Assembly: GCA_021648145.1 (NCBI GenBank)
Contig: JAKITI010000002.1
Coordinates: 135,888 to 199,887, forward strand
DNA from: Gammaproteobacteria bacterium
GTDB taxonomy: Bacteria; Pseudomonadota; Gammaproteobacteria; JAADGQ01
Length of the DNA: 64,000 bases
Direction of reading: 5' to 3'
The position numbers were made by a program, and so were the translations under genes. Shown here piece after piece: positions 1-9,893 of this stretch (position 1 is the first letter of the stretch; every line of letters starts with the position of its first letter). Below the pieces are notes generated by a model. It had not been told where the DNA came from and made no database searches. It saw nothing but the letters and a program-made list of their open reading frames with translations.

Positions 1-3000
1 AGGCTGGATGGGGGCGAATGATGCCAGTGTTGAAAATGATTGGCGTTGGGTTACTGGCCCTGAAGCGGGTACTGCATTTTGGAGCGGTGTCGCAAACGGC
101 AGTTCGGTGGGTGGGATGTATAATAATTGGAGTTCTGGTGAACCTAACCAGTGGGGTGGTGATGAAGATTATGCCCACTTTTTGAATGGGGGGGCTTGGA
201 ATGATTATCCCCTTTCTTTGTCTAGCATTTCTGGTTATGTCGTTGAATACGGCGGTATGGCAGGTGATCCAACCCTACAAATCACGGGTAACAAAAACGT
301 TAATGTAACGGCCCAAAATGACGCGCCTAGTTTTAGTGCCGGGGCAACATTGGCTGCGGTTAATGAAGATACCCTCTCACCTGTCGGGGCGACGGTGACT
401 GCTTTGCTTAATGGTAATTTTAATGATGTGGATAGTAGTAGCAATTTATCCGGCATCGCGGTGGCAGCGGATACTTCAGTCAGCGGTGTTCAAGGGGATT
501 GGGAATATTCCACTGACAGCGGCAGTAATTGGTTTGATATGGGGTCTGTTTCCACCGCTTCAGCGTTGTTGCTAAACAACAGTACGTTGCTACGTTTTAA
601 ACCTTTTTCAAACTACAGTGGAACACCAGGTTCGTTAACGGTTTTTGCTGTCGACGAGTCGGGCAGTACGACCTATACCAGCAGCGCGACGCGACAGGCT
701 TTTGATACCACCAGTGATGATACCGCGTCACAAATTGCGGCATCTGGTGTTGCGATTGGAACCAGTGTCACAGCCGTCAATGATGCACCTATCTTAACTG
801 CCTTTTCTGCGGTGATTGATAGCACCAATGAAGACACTGAAGTTGAACTTACTCTGGCGGAGTTGCAAGCCCAAGGTGATGAAACCGACAGTGAAGATGG
901 CACCGTGAGCCGATTTGTTATCAAATCCGTTAGTACGGGCAGTTTAAAGATTGGCACCTCTGCCGGAACAGCCACCACTTTTGCCGCAACGAGCAACGAC
1001 ACAATTGATGCTTCGAATAATGCCTATTGGACACCTGTAAGCAATGCCAATGGCAGTTTGAATGCCTTTGCTGCGGTGGTGAAAGATAGCAGCAACGCCG
1101 AGTCTATATCAGCCGTGCAAGCACTGATTATGGTGACAGCCACCAATGATACACCGACCTTAACTGTCTTTTCTGCGGCGATTGATAGCACCAATGAAGA
1201 CACTGAAGTTGAGCTTACCCTAGCGGAGCTGCAAGCCCAAGGCGATGAAGCCGACAGTGAAGATGGCACAGTAAGCCGATTTGTTATCAAATCCGTTAGC
1301 ACGGGCAGTTTAAAAATTGGCGCTTCTGCCGGAACAGCGATGCCTTTTGCTGCGACAAGCAACGACACAATTGATGCTTCGAATAATGCCTATTGGACCC
1401 CCGCAAATGATGCCAACGGCAGCTTGAGTGCCTTTACTGTGGCGGCGGAAGATAGCAGCAACACTGAGTCTATCTCAGCCGTGCAAGCGCTGATTATGGT
1501 GACAGCGGTGAATGATATACCGACCTTAACTGCTTTTTCCTCAGTGATTGATAGCAGTGTTGGCGGTGCTGAAGTTGAACTTACTTTGGCTGAGTTCCAA
1601 GCCCAGGGTGATGAAGCCGATATCGAAGATGGCACGATCAGTCGTTTTGTTATCAAAGCGGTCAGCAGCGGTAGCTTGAAGATTGGTACCTCACCTGGCA
1701 CAGCCAGTGTTTTTGCTACCAGCAGCAACGATACCGTGAATGCGACGAACAATGCTTACTGGACTCCAGCTAATAATGCCAGTGGTGAAGTGAATGCTTT
1801 TACCGTTGTTGCTCAAGATAGCGATAGCGCGGAATCAATTTCAGCCATTCAAGCCAGGGTGAGCGTCAGCTCTTTGCCCTTAGTGGTTTATGATTTTGAA
1901 GATAATGTGAATGATGCCAGTGGCAATGGCAATCACGGTGTTTTGCAAGACACAATTACCTACGACAGTGCGGGACACAGTGGCAAGGCATTGAGCTTGT
2001 CTGGCAGTGGTTATGTCAAGTTGCCTGATGACCTACTTAGGAATAACCAGGATTTTACGGTATCGCTTTGGTTTAAAACGACCTCAACAGGCGGCATTCT
2101 GGGCTATCAAAATAAGGTTGTCGGTGCCACCGCAACATACTGGGTTCCGATCATTTCTATTAATACTCTTGGCAAATTACAAGCGGAGTTGTGGATAGGA
2201 AGCTCAATGCTTATTACGTCAACAAATGCAGTTAATGATGGCCAATGGCATCGAGTTGTGATGACGGCAGACACGACTAATAATATATTGAGTGTTTATT
2301 TGGATGGTGTGGCTATCGGTTCTGCAACAGGTACCATTCAGCACCTCGATATGAGCTTTAATCAACTGGGTTTAAATGACGCTAGAGGTCGTGTCGGCAT
2401 AGATTTACCTAATACAGAAACAAATTATTTTACGGGTCTTTTGGATGAATTTACTTTCTACTCCAATGCCTTATCAGCCGTTGAAGTTGCTAAAACTTCG
2501 CAATCGATATCTTTTCCGGCAATAGCTGACCAGCTTTTAAGTCAGGCAACGCTTAACCTTGCAGCAACGGCATCATCGGCTTTGGGCGTAACTTATACCA
2601 GTACGACGGTTTCTGTATGTACAGTGGCGGCGAGTACCGTCACCTTGCTGTCTACAGGTACGTGTACGATACAGGCTAACCAAGCAGGTGATACCACCTA
2701 TAGTTCTGCCGCTCAGATCACGCGGAGCTTTGATGTAGTTGATAATTTTCCGCCCGTATTGACAATGAGTGGTGGAAATACAGTTTTTGTGGAGGACGGT
2801 GTCGCTGTTGCAATTGATCCCTCGTTGACCATAGTCGAGCCTAGTGCGGGTGCTATCAGTGGCGCTACTGTGGCGATTACAGCGGGCTATGTGAGCACTG
2901 AGGATCAGTTGGTTTATTCGGCAGTAGCGGGAGCGGTGATCAGTGGCAGCTTTAATTCGACGACGGGCATATTGACCCTGACGGGGAGTGCCACGCCTGA

Positions 3001-6000
3001 TGATTATCAAGCGGCCTTGCGCGCGGTTCAATACCAGAATATCAACACAGCAAACCCCGATACTGGAGCACGGACAATTCGCTATGCCCTAGGCAGCTCC
3101 TTGTCATTTGCGGAGAATGGTCATTTTTACGAATTTGTGACCGCCTCGGGCATCTCCTGGACAGCAGCTAAGGATGCGGCAGCGGCCAGAACCTTATTTG
3201 GTTTGCAAGGGTATTTAACAACTGTGACTTCAGCAAATGAGAATGCTTTTATTGCTTCTAAATTGGCTGGACAAGGCTGGATGGGAGCGAGTGATGCAGC
3301 AGTTGAAGGTGATTGGCGCTGGGTCACTGGCCCTGAGACAGGCACGGCATTTTGGAGTGGTCTTGGCAATGGCAGTTCAGTTGGCAGTGAATATGAGAAT
3401 TGGGGTGGGGTCGAACCTAACAATGCGGGTGGTGAAGATTATGCCCATTTTTTAAGTGGGGCTACCTGGAATGATTACCCTCATCAACTGGGGAATATTT
3501 CTGGCTACGTTGTTGAATATGGTGGTATGGCAGGTGATCCGGCACTGCAAATCACGGGCAATAAAACCGTTAATGTAACGGCTCAAAATGATGCGCCTGA
3601 AATTACCAGCGATGGCGGAGGTGTAACGGCTGCACTGAATGCGCTGGAGAACCAAACCGCAGTGACAACGTTGACGAGTACGGATGCTGAAAATCACACG
3701 GTGACTTACAGCCTGACGGGCGGGGCGGATCAGGCGAGTTTTAGTCTCGTTAATGGTGTACTGTCTTTTCTGACTTCCTCTGATTTTGAAGCGCCTACCG
3801 ACAGCGATGTCAACAATAGCTATGTTGTTGAAGTGACGGCGACTGATAATGGCTCCGGAGCATTGACTGACACACAAACGCTGACTGTTAGCGTGACGAA
3901 TGTTAACGAATTTCCTATTGCGGGTGCGGTGACGGCGAATAACGTGAGCCAAAATGATAAGGGGAATACTTCGTACACCTTTACCGTGGCTTATTCGGAC
4001 GTGGACGGTAATTTCGACAGTGCGACAGTTGATACGGCTGATGTCACGGTCAGTGGCGGAGCCTCGGTCTCTGGTGCGAGCTGGGGTGGTAATGGTTCTA
4101 CTGGCATAGCCACCTACACTGTAACGCCGCCAGGGGGGAGCTGGGATGATTCGGATAATGGCACTTACACTATTGCGATTCTTGCTAACCAAGTGACAGA
4201 TACAAATACGGGTTTTGTCGCGGCTAACGCCAGTGCCGCCAGTTTTACGGTATTGATGGATTCAACTGGCCCCACGGTGACAGCGGTGACTTTACCTAAC
4301 AGTGCCATGAAGGTGGGCGATGTGGTTGTGGTGAGTATCACTGCCAGCGAAGCGGGATCAACTTTGTTGTCTGGACTAGTGAATGGTGTTGCCGTAACAG
4401 GTTTTATGGATAACGGTGGCGGAAGCTATAGCGCGACTTACACCATTTTAGATGGCCACAGTGATCGTGCGGCGGGTGATGCGATTCCGGTTTCCTTCCA
4501 ACTGCAAGACAGTGCAGGCAACGTCGGTAATACCTACACCAATGCCATTGTGCAAACTGCTGATGCGATTGACGCTAATAATCCCAACGGTGCAACAGGG
4601 GCGTTAGCCGTGAATGAAAACGCCAGTAATGGCACAACGGTGGGCACTGTTTTAGCCACAGGGGCAAGTATCTACAGCTTGGTGGATGATGCTGGCGGTC
4701 GTTTTGCCATCCATGCCAGCACAGGAGTGGTGACTGTACTTGATGGTAGCTTGTTGGATTACGAAGCGAGTGTCAGTCATAACCTTACGGTGCGTGCTGT
4801 TGATGCTGCAAGCAATGCGATAGATACCGTGTTAACGGTGATGGTGAACCCCGTTAATGAAGCGCCATTAGTGGCGGGCCTTAATGGTGATAACGTGCGC
4901 TTTAATGTCGGTGGAAGTGCTGTGAATCTGGATGATGATCTTGATGCCACACTGACGATGGTGGACTCCATTGACATGGATGGCGGCAACGTGACGGTGG
5001 CTATTGTCGCTAATGCTCAAACGGCTGAAGATGTGCTGCAAGTGGGCGCGGTAGGCAATATTTCCCTCACCAATAGTGATGTTTTTCACAGCGATGGCCT
5101 GATAATTGCGACCGTAGCGGGCGGGACGAATGGTGAAAACTTAGTGTTGACACTTAATGCCAATGCCAGCTTTGATCGTGTTCGAGATCTTGTGTCGGCG
5201 TTGCAGTATGCGGGTTCGGATGACTTAAGTGTTAATACCGCAACACGCACCGTGCGTATTACCTTGGATGATGGTGATGGTGAAAGCTCAACCACGCTTA
5301 ATCAAGAGGTCAGTGTAGTGGTCGTGCGAGCGCCGATTATTGACCTTGATGGTGATGATGGCAGCGGCAATAGCAGCGGTGGTTTCAATGCTAGTTTTAC
5401 TGAAGGTGGCGGTGTTGTGGCCTTGGCAGACAGTGATGATTCAGTGGCCGAAGCGAACGATACGGTGATCACGGATGATGGCAACTTTAAATCTCTGAGC
5501 GTGGTATTGGACAACCGCCCCGATGGCAATGCTGAAGGGCTGAGTTCAAGTTATGGTACGGGTGTGCAGGAGGTTAACGGTGAATCGGTGACGATTTCTG
5601 CCTACGACAGCGCGACGGGTGAGTTGTTGATGACTGTGGACGATAACGCTGCCACGGCGGAGACGATGGAGTTGTTGATCGAATCGCTGCGCTACGATAG
5701 TAACTCTCAAACCCCTGATACCACAGAGCGTTTGATTCGTTTTATCGCCACTGATGATGACGATAATGTGGGGCTTGCTGTGACGGCTTCATTGGTTATC
5801 GTGGCCGTCAATGACGCACCGACAGGCAGTGTGAGCGTGACGGGTGCATTGATTGAAGGCCAGACCTTGGTATCTGATATCTCTACGGTCGTTGATTTAG
5901 ATGGTTTGCTTGCGTTTAGTTATCAATGGCAGCGTGATGGTGTTGATATTAGCGGTGCGACAGGCGCAAGTTATCTGCTGATGGCGGCTGATGTGGGTGG

Positions 6001-8530
6001 TGTGATGACACTTGTCGTGAGCTACACCGACGCGGGCGGTTACACAGAGTCGCTGAATAGTGTGGCCAGCGCTGTTGTTGATGGTGATTTAGATGGTGAC
6101 GGACTGGGTGATTTGACTGATACGGATATTGATGGTGATGGCTTGTCCAATGCCTATGAAGTAGCTAATGGCTTGGATAGTCGTGATAGCTCAGACCGTG
6201 ATGCAGATACCGATAATGATGGCGTGAGTAATTACGATGAGTTTGTTGCCGGTACGGATGCCAGTGCCGATGACAATCCACCCACGCTGTCTGCTCCCGC
6301 AGATATCACGTTAAATGCAATGGGTCTGTACACCGCTGTTGATTTAGGTGGTGCCTCAGCATCCGATGCGACCGACGGTGAATTGACGGCACGCATTACG
6401 CATCTGAATGGTGAGGCCGTATTGGTGACACCAACACACTTTAGCCCAGGGGCTCATGTGATTACTTGGACGGCGAGTGATGAGGCAGGCAACAGTGTGT
6501 CGGCCACACAAAATGTGAACGTGGTGCCATTGGTTGAGTTGAGTAAAAACCAAATCACTACAGAAGGCGCAACGGCTCGTTTCAAAGTGGTTCTCAACGG
6601 TTCAGCAGTGGACTATCCGGTCATCGTGCCCTATAGCGTCTCTGGCACAGCCGCGACAGATGGCTCTGATCATGACTTGGTGGATGGCAGTGTCACGATT
6701 AATAGCCCTGACTTAGAGGCGACGGTTTCATTTGCACTGGTTGATGATGGCGCAGGCGAAGGCATGGAGACCTTGCTTGTCACCATGGGTACACCGAGCA
6801 ATGCGGCGCTGGGATCGAAGGATAGCCATAGCGTTGATATCTACGAGGGCAATGTCGCACCTAGTGTTTTATTGACTGCAGAGCAGGGTTATGGTGTCAC
6901 CCGTCTGGTTGCACAAACTGGTGGTCTTGTGGTCGTGGCAGCAGCGGTGAGCGATGCCAATGTCGATGACCTGCATGGCTACGACTGGTCGGCGACAGAC
7001 AACGTTTTGGTGGATACTGATAGTGATGATGCAATGTTCAGTTTTGATCCGGCAAGTTTGGCCACGGGTGTCTACACACTCAAGGTTGTTGTCAACGATG
7101 GCCTGAATACTGTGGCGACACGACTGGAGTTGAAAGTTGTTGCCTCACTGCCTGCTCTGAGCGTTATCGATAGTGACGGTGATGGGGTTGACGATGCCAC
7201 GGAAGGTTATGGCGATACCGACGGTGATGGTGTGCCGAACTATCTTGATAACAGTAATATTGCTAAAAATGTTGCACAACAGCTTGTCGGAGACATCGAA
7301 ATGTTCTTGATGGAAACGGAATCTGACTTAGTGTTAAGCCTGGGGTCAATCGCCTTTAGTTCAGGGAGCAGCCAGATTGGGGTGAGTGACAGTGAGATTG
7401 AGCAATACGGTAACGATGGTGTGGGTGGTGTTGTTGATGAACACCATGACTTTAACAGCGGTTTGTTTGATTTCAATATTGAAGCGTTGCCTGTGCCGGG
7501 TCAAAGCGTCAGCGTGGTTGTAGTGCAATACGCGCCGATTCCGGCCAGTGCGGTTTATCGTAAGCTGATGCCTTCAGGCTGGCAGGACTTTGTTGAAAAT
7601 AGTCGTAACCATATCTCTTCTACGCAAGGCGTTGAGGGTTATTGCCCTCCACCAGGCGATAGCCGCTTTAGCCCAGGTTTGACTCAAGGGCACTGGTGTG
7701 TGCAATTGACGATTGAAGACGGTGGTCCGAACGATGCTGATGGTTTGGCTAATCAGACCGTCAAAGACCCTGGTGGTGTCGCAGTGCTGTCTTCAACGCC
7801 GATCACAGTGAAGGTGACGGGCAGTGGTGGTGGCAGCGTTTCACTGTGGACTTTGTTTCTGATGGGCTTGGTTGTGGTGGTGACTCGTCTGAGCGGTCGA
7901 GGTCGTCGCCTGGTACTGGCCATATGCTGCGCGGTAAGTGGCCTGGGTGTGGCTAACGCTCAGTCACCGCTTAAACCTGACTATATTGGGATTAGCTATT
8001 TATCTGCAACAAGCGATGAACGTGCCAGTGATTTTCAGTCAGATATTGATGCCCTGGGGCTGACGGCAAGCGTGACGCAAACGGATCTTTCACGTTCGGC
8101 TTGGTCGGGGCACATCGGATATCAAATCGAGAAGCCGCTTGCGTTGGAAATTGGCTATGTAGACTTGGGGAAGAGTAGCACCTCTCTCAACGGTCTGGCA
8201 GCCGATGTTGATCACTTTATAACGAGTGTCGAGGCAGTTTATCCCGTCACGGGTTCCGGGTTTACTTTTAATTTTGTAGGCCGTATCGCGCTGAGTAATA
8301 AAGTTGATGCCTGGGCTAACTTCGGCGTTTTTCTCTGGCAAGCAGAATACGATTTAAGCAGTGAAACGGTCTCGAAAACCTTCAAAGAGCGTGGCTTTAA
8401 TAATACGCTCGGCTTTGGTTTGGAAATGGATGTGGTTGCCCAAGTTCCAATTAGACTTGGTTGGACGATGTATCGCTTGGGCGGCGTTGACGTGAGTGCG
8501 TGGACGCTCGGGGCAGGGTTTCGGTTTTAG
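1..8530 (+). CDS. giant multidomain surface adhesin, 5' end outside window (in-window translation 2840 aa; frame continues from nt 2)
   Basis: Uninterrupted ORF to 8530. The window opens inside a C-type lectin domain (GWMGANDASVENDWRWVTGP...NDYP) that recurs almost intact around nt 3280-3560. In between: three near-identical 120-aa cadherin/Big-like repeats, a LamG/ConA-like module (LWFKTTSTGG...QWHRVV), cadherin repeats (AQNDAPEIT...VTNVNEFP), TSP3 Ca-binding repeats (DGDLDGDGLGDLTDTDIDGDGLSN...DTDNDGVSNYDE), a HYR-like and a Calx-beta-like module, a C-terminal IEDGGPNDADGLANQTVKDPGG motif, and a Gly-rich/TM/RGRR tail. Confidence 0.85.
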   Translation, partial: GWMGANDASVENDWRWVTGPEAGTAFWSGVANGSSVGGMYNNWSSGEPNQWGGDEDYAHFLNGGAWNDYPLSLSSISGYVVEYGGMAGDPTLQITGNKNVNVTAQNDAPSFSAGATLAAVNEDTLSPVGATVTALLNGNFNDVDSSSNLSGIAVAADTSVSGVQGDWEYSTDSGSNWFDMGSVSTASALLLNNSTLLRFKPFSNYSGTPGSLTVFAVDESGSTTYTSSATRQAFDTTSDDTASQIAASGVAIGTSVTAVNDAPILTAFSAVIDSTNEDTEVELTLAELQAQGDETDSEDGTVSRFVIKSVSTGSLKIGTSAGTATTFAATSNDTIDASNNAYWTPVSNANGSLNAFAAVVKDSSNAESISAVQALIMVTATNDTPTLTVFSAAIDSTNEDTEVELTLAELQAQGDEADSEDGTVSRFVIKSVSTGSLKIGASAGTAMPFAATSNDTIDASNNAYWTPANDANGSLSAFTVAAEDSSNTESISAVQALIMVTAVNDIPTLTAFSSVIDSSVGGAEVELTLAEFQAQGDEADIEDGTISRFVIKAVSSGSLKIGTSPGTASVFATSSNDTVNATNNAYWTPANNASGEVNAFTVVAQDSDSAESISAIQARVSVSSLPLVVYDFEDNVNDASGNGNHGVLQDTITYDSAGHSGKALSLSGSGYVKLPDDLLRNNQDFTVSLWFKTTSTGGILGYQNKVVGATATYWVPIISINTLGKLQAELWIGSSMLITSTNAVNDGQWHRVVMTADTTNNILSVYLDGVAIGSATGTIQHLDMSFNQLGLNDARGRVGIDLPNTETNYFTGLLDEFTFYSNALSAVEVAKTSQSISFPAIADQLLSQATLNLAATASSALGVTYTSTTVSVCTVAASTVTLLSTGTCTIQANQAGDTTYSSAAQITRSFDVVDNFPPVLTMSGGNTVFVEDGVAVAIDPSLTIVEPSAGAISGATVAITAGYVSTEDQLVYSAVAGAVISGSFNSTTGILTLTGSATPDDYQAALRAVQYQNINTANPDTGARTIRYALGSSLSFAENGHFYEFVTASGISWTAAKDAAAARTLFGLQGYLTTVTSANENAFIASKLAGQGWMGASDAAVEGDWRWVTGPETGTAFWSGLGNGSSVGSEYENWGGVEPNNAGGEDYAHFLSGATWNDYPHQLGNISGYVVEYGGMAGDPALQITGNKTVNVTAQNDAPEITSDGGGVTAALNALENQTAVTTLTSTDAENHTVTYSLTGGADQASFSLVNGVLSFLTSSDFEAPTDSDVNNSYVVEVTATDNGSGALTDTQTLTVSVTNVNEFPIAGAVTANNVSQNDKGNTSYTFTVAYSDVDGNFDSATVDTADVTVSGGASVSGASWGGNGSTGIATYTVTPPGGSWDDSDNGTYTIAILANQVTDTNTGFVAANASAASFTVLMDSTGPTVTAVTLPNSAMKVGDVVVVSITASEAGSTLLSGLVNGVAVTGFMDNGGGSYSATYTILDGHSDRAAGDAIPVSFQLQDSAGNVGNTYTNAIVQTADAIDANNPNGATGALAVNENASNGTTVGTVLATGASIYSLVDDAGGRFAIHASTGVVTVLDGSLLDYEASVSHNLTVRAVDAASNAIDTVLTVMVNPVNEAPLVAGLNGDNVRFNVGGSAVNLDDDLDATLTMVDSIDMDGGNVTVAIVANAQTAEDVLQVGAVGNISLTNSDVFHSDGLIIATVAGGTNGENLVLTLNANASFDRVRDLVSALQYAGSDDLSVNTATRTVRITLDDGDGESSTTLNQEVSVVVVRAPIIDLDGDDGSGNSSGGFNASFTEGGGVVALADSDDSVAEANDTVITDDGNFKSLSVVLDNRPDGNAEGLSSSYGTGVQEVNGESVTISAYDSATGELLMTVDDNAATAETMELLIESLRYDSNSQTPDTTERLIRFIATDDDDNVGLAVTASLVIVAVNDAPTGSVSVTGALIEGQTLVSDISTVVDLDGLLAFSYQWQRDGVDISGATGASYLLMAADVGGVMTLVVSYTDAGGYTESLNSVASAVVDGDLDGDGLGDLTDTDIDGDGLSNAYEVANGLDSRDSSDRDADTDNDGVSNYDEFVAGTDASADDNPPTLSAPADITLNAMGLYTAVDLGGASASDATDGELTARITHLNGEAVLVTPTHFSPGAHVITWTASDEAGNSVSATQNVNVVPLVELSKNQITTEGATARFKVVLNGSAVDYPVIVPYSVSGTAATDGSDHDLVDGSVTINSPDLEATVSFALVDDGAGEGMETLLVTMGTPSNAALGSKDSHSVDIYEGNVAPSVLLTAEQGYGVTRLVAQTGGLVVVAAAVSDANVDDLHGYDWSATDNVLVDTDSDDAMFSFDPASLATGVYTLKVVVNDGLNTVATRLELKVVASLPALSVIDSDGDGVDDATEGYGDTDGDGVPNYLDNSNIAKNVAQQLVGDIEMFLMETESDLVLSLGSIAFSSGSSQIGVSDSEIEQYGNDGVGGVVDEHHDFNSGLFDFNIEALPVPGQSVSVVVVQYAPIPASAVYRKLMPSGWQDFVENSRNHISSTQGVEGYCPPPGDSRFSPGLTQGHWCVQLTIEDGGPNDADGLANQTVKDPGGVAVLSSTPITVKVTGSGGGSVSLWTLFLMGLVVVVTRLSGRGRRLVLAICCAVSGLGVANAQSPLKPDYIGISYLSATSDERASDFQSDIDALGLTASVTQTDLSRSAWSGHIGYQIEKPLALEIGYVDLGKSSTSLNGLAADVDHFITSVEAVYPVTGSGFTFNFVGRIALSNKVDAWANFGVFLWQAEYDLSSETVSKTFKERGFNNTLGFGLEMDVVAQVPIRLGWTMYRLGGVDVSAWTLGAGFRF
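781..1860 (+). repeat. three tandem 360-bp (120-aa) near-identical intragenic repeats inside the adhesin gene
   Basis: The protein block AVNDAPxLTxFSAxIDSTNEDTEVELTLAELQAQGDExDSEDGTVSRFVIKSVSTGSLKIG...SAVQALIMVTA occurs three times. The repeated DNA also generates three paralogous antisense ORFs (673-1002, 1024-1368, 1390-1752). Confidence 0.85.
7826..7909 (+). other. GlyGly-CTERM / PEP-CTERM-like C-terminal sorting signal (Gly-rich, hydrophobic helix, RGRR cluster) inside the adhesin ORF
   Basis: ...TGSGGGSVSLWTLFLMGLVVVVTRLSGRGRR. The tripartite organisation matches rhombosortase/exosortase-type anchors, which normally end the protein. Here no stop codon follows. Confidence 0.5.
7862..8530 (+). 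other. signal peptide plus 8-strand OmpA-like outer-membrane beta-barrel in the adhesin frame (C-terminal fusion or nested gene)
   Basis: In-frame ATG at 7862 and GTG at 7874/7877/7880. (M)TRLSGRGRR-LVLAICCAVSGLGVANA|QSP has n-region, h-region and AXA cleavage site. The next ~185 aa are alternating amphipathic strands (YIGISY, HIGYQI, LEIGYVDLG, FTFNFVGRIAL, FGVFLWQAEY, LGFGLEMDV, IRLGWTMYRL) ending ...WTLGAGFRF, i.e. a terminal aromatic as in OMPs. Confidence 0.4.
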
Positions 8531-8900: not shown

Positions 8901-9893
8901 ATGAAGTATTTAGTTAGATCAATGATATTGCTTTTAGTTATTTATAATAGCTCGGGCTGGAGTGCGACCATTGATGGGGAGGCCAGAATTATTGGTGGAG
9001 TCACCGCACCTAAAGATTCATGGCCAGCGATGGTCGCACTGCTGGATCGTGAAACTGTTGAAAAAATTGAGTCTGGGTTTGCCGTTGATAAAAATGATCA
9101 GTGGATTCCAATTTATCAAGCGAATTATCAAGCACAACTTTGTGGTGGTTCACTCATAGCTGCTAGGTGGATAGTCACTGCGGCACACTGCCTGTTTGAT
9201 CAAGCGGGAAGTTTACGAGGAGCCGATGCATTTTATGCTTTAGTGGGCACATCAAATTTAACCCAAGGCGGTGAAAGAAGGGTCGTTGCGAATATTTTTA
9301 TCCATCCTGAGTATAATATTGAATCATTCGATTTTGATATCGCATTATTAGAGTTGTCACAGAATGAAAACCCATCAGCAGAGCCAGTTTCACTATACTC
9401 TGGTTCACCAGAACCGGGTCAGAAAGTGATTGTAGCGGGGTGGGGAGTACGATTTTATTCAAGCTCTGGTACACCTTATGATTTGGAAGATGATGTTTTT
9501 GGTGATCGCCCCGCCAAGCTGGAAGAGGTTGAGCTTTCAGTGATTGATAACGTGCAATGCGGTATTATGAATCAGGGAGGCCGTGTGACTGAAAATATGA
9601 TGTGTGCTGGTTTTGTTGAAGGGGGCAAGGATAGTTGTATTGGCGATAGTGGTGGGCCATTAATGGCATGGCAAAGTGGTGAATACCGCCTTGCGGGGGT
9701 GGTGAATTATGGTTATGGGTGTGCGATGCCGGGAAGGTATGGTATTTACATGCGAGTGGAGCGCTTTCAAGATTGGCTGGCTTCATATACTGGTACTGTC
9801 AGGCCAGATAAAAGTGATTCTGAAACAGGTGCTTTTTATGGGTTATTTGTTTTTTTACTTATTTTTCGGTTAATTATATATAGAAGGAAATAA
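8901..9893 (+). CDS. secreted trypsin-like (S1) serine protease with C-terminal hydrophobic/basic anchor (VesB-like)
   Basis: N-terminal signal peptide. IIGG start of mature enzyme; TAAHC (His), DIALLEL (Asp), GDSGGPL (Ser). C-terminus ...SETGAFYGLFVFLLIFRLIIYRRK is a TM helix plus basic cluster, as in GlyGly-CTERM proteases of Vibrio. Confidence 0.85.
   Translation: MKYLVRSMILLLVIYNSSGWSATIDGEARIIGGVTAPKDSWPAMVALLDRETVEKIESGFAVDKNDQWIPIYQANYQAQLCGGSLIAARWIVTAAHCLFDQAGSLRGADAFYALVGTSNLTQGGERRVVANIFIHPEYNIESFDFDIALLELSQNENPSAEPVSLYSGSPEPGQKVIVAGWGVRFYSSSGTPYDLEDDVFGDRPAKLEEVELSVIDNVQCGIMNQGGRVTENMMCAGFVEGGKDSCIGDSGGPLMAWQSGEYRLAGVVNYGYGCAMPGRYGIYMRVERFQDWLASYTGTVRPDKSDSETGAFYGLFVFLLIFRLIIYRRK

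Follow-up and report, generated by a model that had tools for sequence, protein, structure and literature searches.

What is encoded when a C-terminal sorting tag is not followed by a stop codon? A 64,000-nucleotide (nt) stretch from Gammaproteobacteria bacterium (assembly GCA_021648145.1, contig JAKITI010000002.1, positions 135,888 to 199,887 of the forward strand; hereafter the window) raises this question. It opens inside the gene for a giant adhesin, and the tag-like tail of this adhesin runs in frame into a second hydrophobic segment and a predicted outer-membrane barrel. By definition, a C-terminal sorting tag such as GlyGly-CTERM closes the protein that carries it, and the outer-membrane retention of tag-processed proteins is only partly understood. 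A preliminary description of the locus had put forward three explanations: a genuine fusion of adhesin and barrel, a nested gene translated from an internal start, or a stop codon lost by mutation or misassembly. We found the in-frame join in deeply diverged species and on unrelated passengers. The open reading frame (ORF) is, in our judgement, probably a natural polyprotein, which would consist of a Sec-exported giant adhesin and its own outer-membrane partner.

The ORF lies on the + strand in frame 2 and ends with the TAG at 8528-8530. As no in-frame stop precedes this one from base 2 onward, its 5' end must lie to the left of the window, and it is longer than 2840 amino acids (aa). Its domain set comprises C-type lectin, LamG, cadherin and Calx-beta domains, TSP3 repeats, a choice-of-anchor U domain, the tag, the internal signal and the barrel. 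The parts that matter for the argument are the following:

2 to 8530, + strand: giant adhesin-plus-barrel ORF, with the 5' end beyond the window, recognized by its stop-free frame and by Pfam and NCBIfam domains.
7442 to 7786, + strand: choice-of-anchor U domain (NF041766), the last folded domain of the passenger, a beta-sandwich in the AlphaFold2 model.
7820 to 7837, + strand: Gly/Ser motif GSGGGS, the predicted rhombosortase or rhomboid cleavage region; the TIGR03501 alignment starts here and the Gly residues are invariant.
7838 to 7885, + strand: hydrophobic helix 1, VSLWTLFLMGLVVVVT, the transmembrane helix of the tag and predicted stop-transfer segment (AlphaFold2 helix 149-164; present in 61 of 61 fused loci).
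7862 to 7882, + strand: candidate internal starts ATG 7862 and GTG 7874, 7877 and 7880, with no recognizable Shine-Dalgarno sequence.
7886 to 7909, + strand: basic loop RLSGRGRR (+4), which belongs to the tag as its positive tail and to the internal signal as its n-region; always net positive in fused loci.
7910 to 7960, + strand: h- and c-regions of the internal signal peptide, LVLAICCAVSGLGVANA, with a predicted signal peptidase I site at 7960/7961 (ANA/QSP).
7961 to 8527, + strand: predicted mature OmpA-like eight-stranded beta-barrel of 189 aa, ending in the aromatic GFRF, identified by Pfam, AlphaFold2 and Foldseek.

The anatomy of this tail as first described (Gly-rich segment, helix, Arg cluster, signal and barrel in one frame) proved exact when checked by coordinates; the domain in front of the tag had been left unnamed and is the choice-of-anchor U domain. 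The NF041766 model (cut-off 32) scored 48.6 bits on the whole ORF and 60.3 bits on an excerpt, covering aa 2479-2593. The domain ends 11 residues before the Gly motif and directly precedes the anchoring signal; judged by its name, the NF041766 family precedes alternative anchoring signals. Further upstream, window positions 770-1781 hold 2.8 tandem copies of a 366-nt unit (81% matches), which encode adhesin repeats of ~122 aa, and the lectin-containing module at the window start (aa 1-110) recurs near aa 1085-1195.

The tripartite GlyGly-CTERM layout of Gly/Ser motif, helix and basic cluster occupies 7820-7909 and is kept in all fused loci described below. In the window it does not stand at the extreme C-terminus, as another 206 residues follow in frame before the stop at 8528. 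Scored against TIGR03501 (cut-off 15.5), the check proposed in the preliminary description, the tag gave a score that varied with context: it lay above the cut-off only when the sequence was trimmed after RGRR (17.1 bits) and fell below it in a 170-aa excerpt (14.0 bits) and in the whole ORF (10.3 bits). The true C-terminal tags of six relatives were also scored: four reached 18.9-21.8 bits, so the adhesin family uses bona fide GlyGly-CTERM tags, and the other two scored 13.6 and 10.3 bits. In an alignment of 17 sequences of fused proteins (A1) the three Gly residues of the tag (G143-G145) are invariant, which suggests that the tag is still used or under selection.

Behind the tag, the window has the regions of an ordinary signal peptide: an n-region (RLSGRGRR), an h-region (LVLAICCAVSGLGV) and small residues at -3 and -1 (ANA/Q). 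Helices and cleavage sites were called with custom scripts; hydrophobicity free-energy sums give rough support only. It had been proposed that the same ~30 codons read both as sorting tag and as signal peptide. This holds for the basic cluster, which is shared, whereas the hydrophobic segments are two and separate.

The barrel assignment of the preliminary description was borne out. From QSP at 7961 to GAGFRF at 8510-8527, the sequence matched PF13505 with 45.7 bits (cut-off 28.7) and PF01389 with 42.1 bits (cut-off 21), both above the gathering threshold. An AlphaFold2 model of the last 376 residues had a mean predicted local distance difference test (pLDDT) score of 83.8, with most of the barrel at 82-96. 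The model runs from the beta-sandwich through helices 149-164 and 169-179 and a stretch of low pLDDT at the predicted cleavage site (176-188) to the confident barrel, whose predicted strands merge to eight after joining bulges. The best Foldseek matches were OmpA (9fzd/1qjp), Ail (3qra), OmpX (1qj9), NspA (1p4t) and the OprF N-domain, all of them eight-stranded barrels, at E-values of 1e-9 to 6e-6; the template modelling (TM) score by target was 0.63-0.76 for OmpA, Ail, OmpX and NspA.

A scan of one genome per species yielded 79 loci, which were classified from raw DNA. The in-frame join is present in 61 of them, where the ORF continues for ~255-320 residues past a DGGPND motif. The adhesin ORF ends soon after the tag in 14 loci (61-126 residues past this motif), and four loci have more cadherin-like domains followed by a C-terminal GlyGly-CTERM-type tail. 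All 61 fused loci carry two hydrophobic stretches, and the order of parts is GG motif, helix 1, basic loop, helix 2 with an AXA-type site, and barrel. The loop between the two stretches measures 3-28 aa, with a median of 7, and carries a net positive charge in every fused locus, which fits a membrane hairpin by the positive-inside rule. Small residues at -3 and -1 occur in 56-58 of the 61 second segments, which end in an AXA-type site (AQA, ANA, ASA), and the remaining three homologues have their site just past the scanned segment; for helix 1 the count is 27 of 61. The barrel starts ~5-35 residues past helix 2 in most loci. Of the 61 homologues, 43 end in F and 48 in either F or Y, the aromatic end expected of the beta-signal for the beta-barrel assembly machinery (BAM).

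The join extends far beyond close relatives. Cultured strains with the fused form include Moritella dasanensis, three Hahella, several Cellvibrio, Teredinibacter, Oceanobacter, Allohahella, Litoribacillus and Bacterioplanoides, and barrels across the fused loci are only ~30-50% identical. In a word-indexed protein search, many proteins with an identical order of parts aligned over more than 90% of the 376-aa query, at identities of 30-49%. An exhaustive HMMER search with the 246-residue tail as query gave 797 clusters (at 50% identity) at E<=1e-3 and 169 at E<=1e-10. Among the best 150 clusters, 76 long proteins, 47 of them with at least 1000 aa, matched from the Gly motif to a C-terminal barrel, and 51 were stand-alone barrels of at most 300 aa. 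About 38 longer matches are without the choice-of-anchor U motif, and almost all that were inspected carry the same parts on other passengers; the join is therefore a modular, widely reused cassette.

Three further observations concern the arrangement of the cassette. The locus of Cellvibrio fontiphilus (L062) has two near-identical fused tails, at ~798 and ~10280, within 21 kb, so cassette-bearing genes can duplicate in tandem. In P0231 (3295 aa) the hairpin is followed by cadherin-like, OmpA_C-like and again cadherin-like domains before the barrel, and P0184 (1423 aa) has an OmpA_C peptidoglycan-binding domain after the barrel; the second polyprotein product can thus exceed a bare barrel.

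If a stop codon between two genes had been lost in this genome only, by sequencing or assembly error or by a recent pseudogenizing mutation, relatives should keep a stop after the basic cluster and a barrel gene with its own ribosome-binding site, as the preliminary description had pointed out. This arrangement does exist, in Ferrimonas sediminum (L018) and Agarivorans (L079). It is a minority state, apparently the one that preceded fusion, and no evidence of an artefact. Frameshifts or premature stops were also seen in the join and barrel region of four loci from metagenome-assembled genomes (L024, 4761-5608; L038, 7476-8164; L043, 10289-11036; L068, 2171-2960); compared with intact fused proteins such as P0003, these broken barrels are assembly errors or decaying copies. 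An exact-protein look-up for independent assemblies returned no identical copy of the downstream-ORF protein on record. The closest relatives, locus L001 (70% identity) and the full-length protein P0121 (2059 aa; tail 72% identical), have the join, as do dozens of independent isolates, metagenome-assembled genomes and metagenome proteins. The loop of the fused form is moreover trimmed to a short shared basic cluster, unlike an intergenic spacer that is read through. Because species and protein clusters of deep divergence share the join, as do both nearest relatives, we reject a lost stop or assembly error, which we regard as extremely improbable; on this comparison the join is real and not a sequencing error. 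The same conservation supports the genuine adhesin-to-barrel fusion that had been the first of the three options.

Full-length fused relatives, P0121 among them, start with ordinary N-terminal Sec signal peptides and are not type I secretion substrates. In the polyprotein reading, such an N-terminal signal, which for the present ORF would lie beyond the window, starts export of the passenger by Sec. Helix 1 of the tag would then halt transfer in the inner membrane, and the short Arg-rich loop, serving both as positive tail of the tag and as n-region of the next signal, would remain cytoplasmic. Helix 2 would insert N-in/C-out as an internal signal peptide and restart export. Signal peptidase I is predicted to cut after ANA (7960/7961) and so to free the 189-aa barrel, which BAM would insert into the outer membrane. 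The adhesin, held by the helical hairpin, would be cut at the Gly motif by a rhombosortase or related rhomboid, lipid-modified and moved to the surface, as with VesB of Vibrio cholerae, for which rhombosortase cleavage, lipid modification and surface transfer are described (PMC6219818, PMC13393428). The barrel would probably be a dedicated outer-membrane docking or anchoring partner, made 1:1 with the adhesin at one translocon.

Several observations weigh against this reading, and the docking role of the barrel is a part that we purely infer. Five proteins (P0034, P0043, P0184, P0224 and P0230) have one hydrophobic stretch only between the Gly motif and the AXA site, as in GGGSIGWAMLVMLLLLGSFKAYA/VDW, where tag helix and signal h-region are the same residues. 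These variants fall outside the hairpin model, because an exported passenger would strand the barrel in the cytoplasm, and an internal start or another route would be needed. For P0034, the contig (L080, 1288-2322) looks odd upstream, and its sole Shine-Dalgarno-like GGAGG lies 16 nt from the ATG. The TIGR03501 score of the window tag is under the cut-off when the tag sits in the full ORF. No rhomboid, rhombosortase or type II secretion gene was detected with NCBIfam in the 20 window ORFs scanned, which are only housekeeping genes (mobAB, miaA, hflXKC, recX, kdsA and others), and a feature screen of 2033 flank ORFs found no rhomboid beside the related loci, where no type II secretion gene was seen either. 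TIGR03501 gives no match to the fused tags of Cellvibrio (L051) and Hahella (L044), and Haft and Varghese list Cellvibrio japonicus as 'none found' for rhombosortase (PMC3237569); given the undetected tag and this listing, the Cellvibrio clade may use the cassette differently. Lastly, this clade conserves an internal Shine-Dalgarno sequence and ATG, which leads to the second option.

According to that option, the barrel precursor is made mainly from an internal start, at ATG 7862, at GTG 7874-7880 or nearer helix 2. Tag and signal would overlap in the same codons, and the read-through part would be a by-product that the cell tolerates, cuts away and degrades. The in-frame ATG and the three GTG codons named in the preliminary description are indeed present. 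Before them, however, there is no Shine-Dalgarno sequence: the best duplex with the anti-Shine-Dalgarno sequence has -4.1 kcal/mol, a value that control in-frame start codons give as well. Neither a promoter nor a terminator was predicted above chance near the join of the window. The Cellvibrio clade is different. Here, a conserved Gly of helix 1 is encoded by GGA in 10 of 12 loci, compared with ~10% of Gly codons in general there, and this codon produces GGAG or GGAGG at a distance of ~4-10 nt from a downstream in-frame ATG, which precedes the codons for K-R and helix 2. The ten loci are L030, L051, L053, L054, L062, L064, L071, L075, L076 and L077, with the site ~150-210 nt past DGGPND and at ~10250-10320 in most. 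It looks like a conserved internal ribosome-binding site within the coding region of a transmembrane helix, and the barrel may in some lineages come also, or instead, from an internal start. Strong anti-Shine-Dalgarno matches are enriched in the fused loci as a whole (17% at <=-8 kcal/mol, compared with 5% expected), stand-alone barrels with ordinary signal peptides exist, and the topology of the single-helix variants can be understood only if translation starts internally. Most fused loci nonetheless lack a Shine-Dalgarno sequence, and in three the relevant stretch offers no start codon of any kind (ATG, GTG or TTG). A useless read-through could be ended by a stop after the tag at no cost; yet the ORF is continuous in 61 loci and in at least 76 clusters whose barrels are ~30% identical. 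As the main route to the barrel, internal initiation appears rather unlikely to us.

The adhesin might instead stay covalently joined to an uncleaved barrel, which would act as an autotransporter-like anchor or as a tether across the envelope. A passenger with a C-terminal barrel is the layout of type V secretion, and the single-helix variants might be read as uncleaved fusions. The barrel is, however, eight-stranded and OmpA-like, too narrow for passage of a passenger, and no autotransporter Pfam family matched. The basic loop and AXA site are conserved as in cleavable signals. With the barrel starting so soon after helix 2, the connecting segment would in most loci be too short to span the distance from an inner-membrane hairpin to the outer membrane, and the split versions with ordinary signal peptides show that the barrel works as a free protein. 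We consider an uncleaved fusion very improbable.

The split versions also bear on the origin of the polyprotein. In L018 the adhesin ends with CRRNLGHQVKRRG and a stop codon, and the barrel gene with its own signal peptide starts 5 bases on, after AAAGGAGG; L079 is split in the same way with a gap of 24 bases. Because the barrel gene is in the frame of the adhesin in both loci, with a single stop between them, one point mutation yields the fused form. In L026 the barrel gene is found farther downstream. Two Pseudoalteromonas loci show a third gene order, with a stand-alone barrel gene immediately upstream of the adhesin gene (991-1665 and 1733-11059 in L050; 883-1611 and 1730-11062 in L058); their adhesin has two extra cadherin-like domains and then a GlyGly-CTERM-type tail. 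In a neighbor-joining tree of the barrels, which has long branches and is indicative only, the split forms fall mostly near the base of a large fused radiation. The pairing of adhesin and barrel thus persists despite varied gene order and is fused in most lineages, which is evidence of a standard kind for a functional partnership.

These separate barrel genes came to light in a comparison of neighboring genes across the 79 loci. No neighbor was universal, and the clusters that ranked highest consisted of ORFs within the adhesin genes and antisense to them. In the window, two ORFs of 330 aa (8901-9893, + strand) and 405 aa (12266-13483, - strand) adjoin the adhesin gene amid housekeeping genes. 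Neither has an NCBIfam match at E<=1e-5, and the 405-aa ORF has none at 1e-3 either.

In the literature on GlyGly-CTERM with OmpA, on choice-of-anchor domains and on bacterial internal signal peptides, we did not find this architecture described. An Aeromonas adhesin preprint concerns another domain, choice-of-anchor K. No NCBIfam model spans the cassette, and the database names of fused proteins are generic ('hypothetical', 'Ig-like', 'large repetitive protein'). Each module is known; their conserved combination and the processing that it implies are apparently undescribed. We would go further only with some reserve, at slightly less than even confidence: the cassette may be a widespread, unrecognized surface-anchoring polyprotein of Gammaproteobacteria, in which signal peptidase cuts the internal signal and each GlyGly-CTERM-type adhesin is delivered with a dedicated barrel that docks or retains it. 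If so, the cassette would supply the missing outer-membrane partner for a class of sorted proteins. Rules for tag finding that demand a C-terminal position will miss cassette proteins, and the join points to natural processing of internal signal peptides in bacteria, which is rarely documented. The polyprotein reading predicts that in cultured Hahella, Cellvibrio, Moritella and Teredinibacter one ORF gives two products, that cleavage falls at defined sites and that a rhomboid protease is required.

Among known systems, the tag can be compared with GlyGly-CTERM and rhombosortase (TIGR03501; VesB; PMC3237569, PMC6219818, PMC13393428). In both, a secreted passenger ends with an unstructured linker to which a Gly/Ser motif, a hydrophobic helix and a basic cluster are directly joined; the host here is a gammaproteobacterium, and relatives of the present adhesin end in tags that pass the model. 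The window tag differs in being internal and in lending its basic cluster to a second signal peptide as n-region. The barrel resembles those of the OmpA, OmpX, Ail and AcfA type in its above-threshold Pfam matches, predicted fold, terminal aromatic residue and preceding signal with an AXA site. Unlike in these proteins, the signal peptide is internal, ~2650 or more residues into the ORF, and the window protein lacks the OmpA_C peptidoglycan-binding domain, which P0184 and P0231 have.

Type V secretion systems (autotransporters and the fused two-partner type Vd) likewise combine an N-terminal signal, a large passenger and a C-terminal barrel in one polypeptide. Their barrels have 12 or 16 strands and a linker that threads the pore, with no inner-membrane hairpin or internal signal. 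Here the barrel has eight predicted strands and is predicted to be released, and a two-helix hairpin with a basic loop, rather than a pore-threading linker, lies between passenger and barrel. No autotransporter family matched, and structural matches to EspP and NalP were weak (TM-score 0.18-0.26).

For the proposed partnership of adhesin and barrel, TraA/TraB of Myxococcus xanthus is, by analogy, the closest functional analogue. TraA is a lectin- and repeat-rich surface receptor with a C-terminal tag (MYXO-CTERM); its gene overlaps that of an OmpA-family envelope protein in one operon, and both proteins are required for one process (PMC3325183). TraA and TraB differ from the present pair in being separate genes, with another tag and processing enzyme and with an OmpA_C domain in TraB, and no sequence relationship was found beyond TSP3-type repeats (a weak MtsC match).

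Naturally cleaved internal signal peptides are, to our knowledge, rare in bacterial Sec substrates, and the literature searched yielded no example of the present kind. In the envelope polyproteins of flaviviruses and bunyaviruses, a stop-transfer helix is followed by a short cytoplasmic loop and an internal signal that host signal peptidase cuts, so that a single ORF yields two products, membrane-bound or secreted. These polyproteins act at the eukaryotic endoplasmic reticulum, unlike the one proposed here; as an analogy, their processing is the closest mechanistic parallel to the order of events suggested for the adhesin and its barrel.

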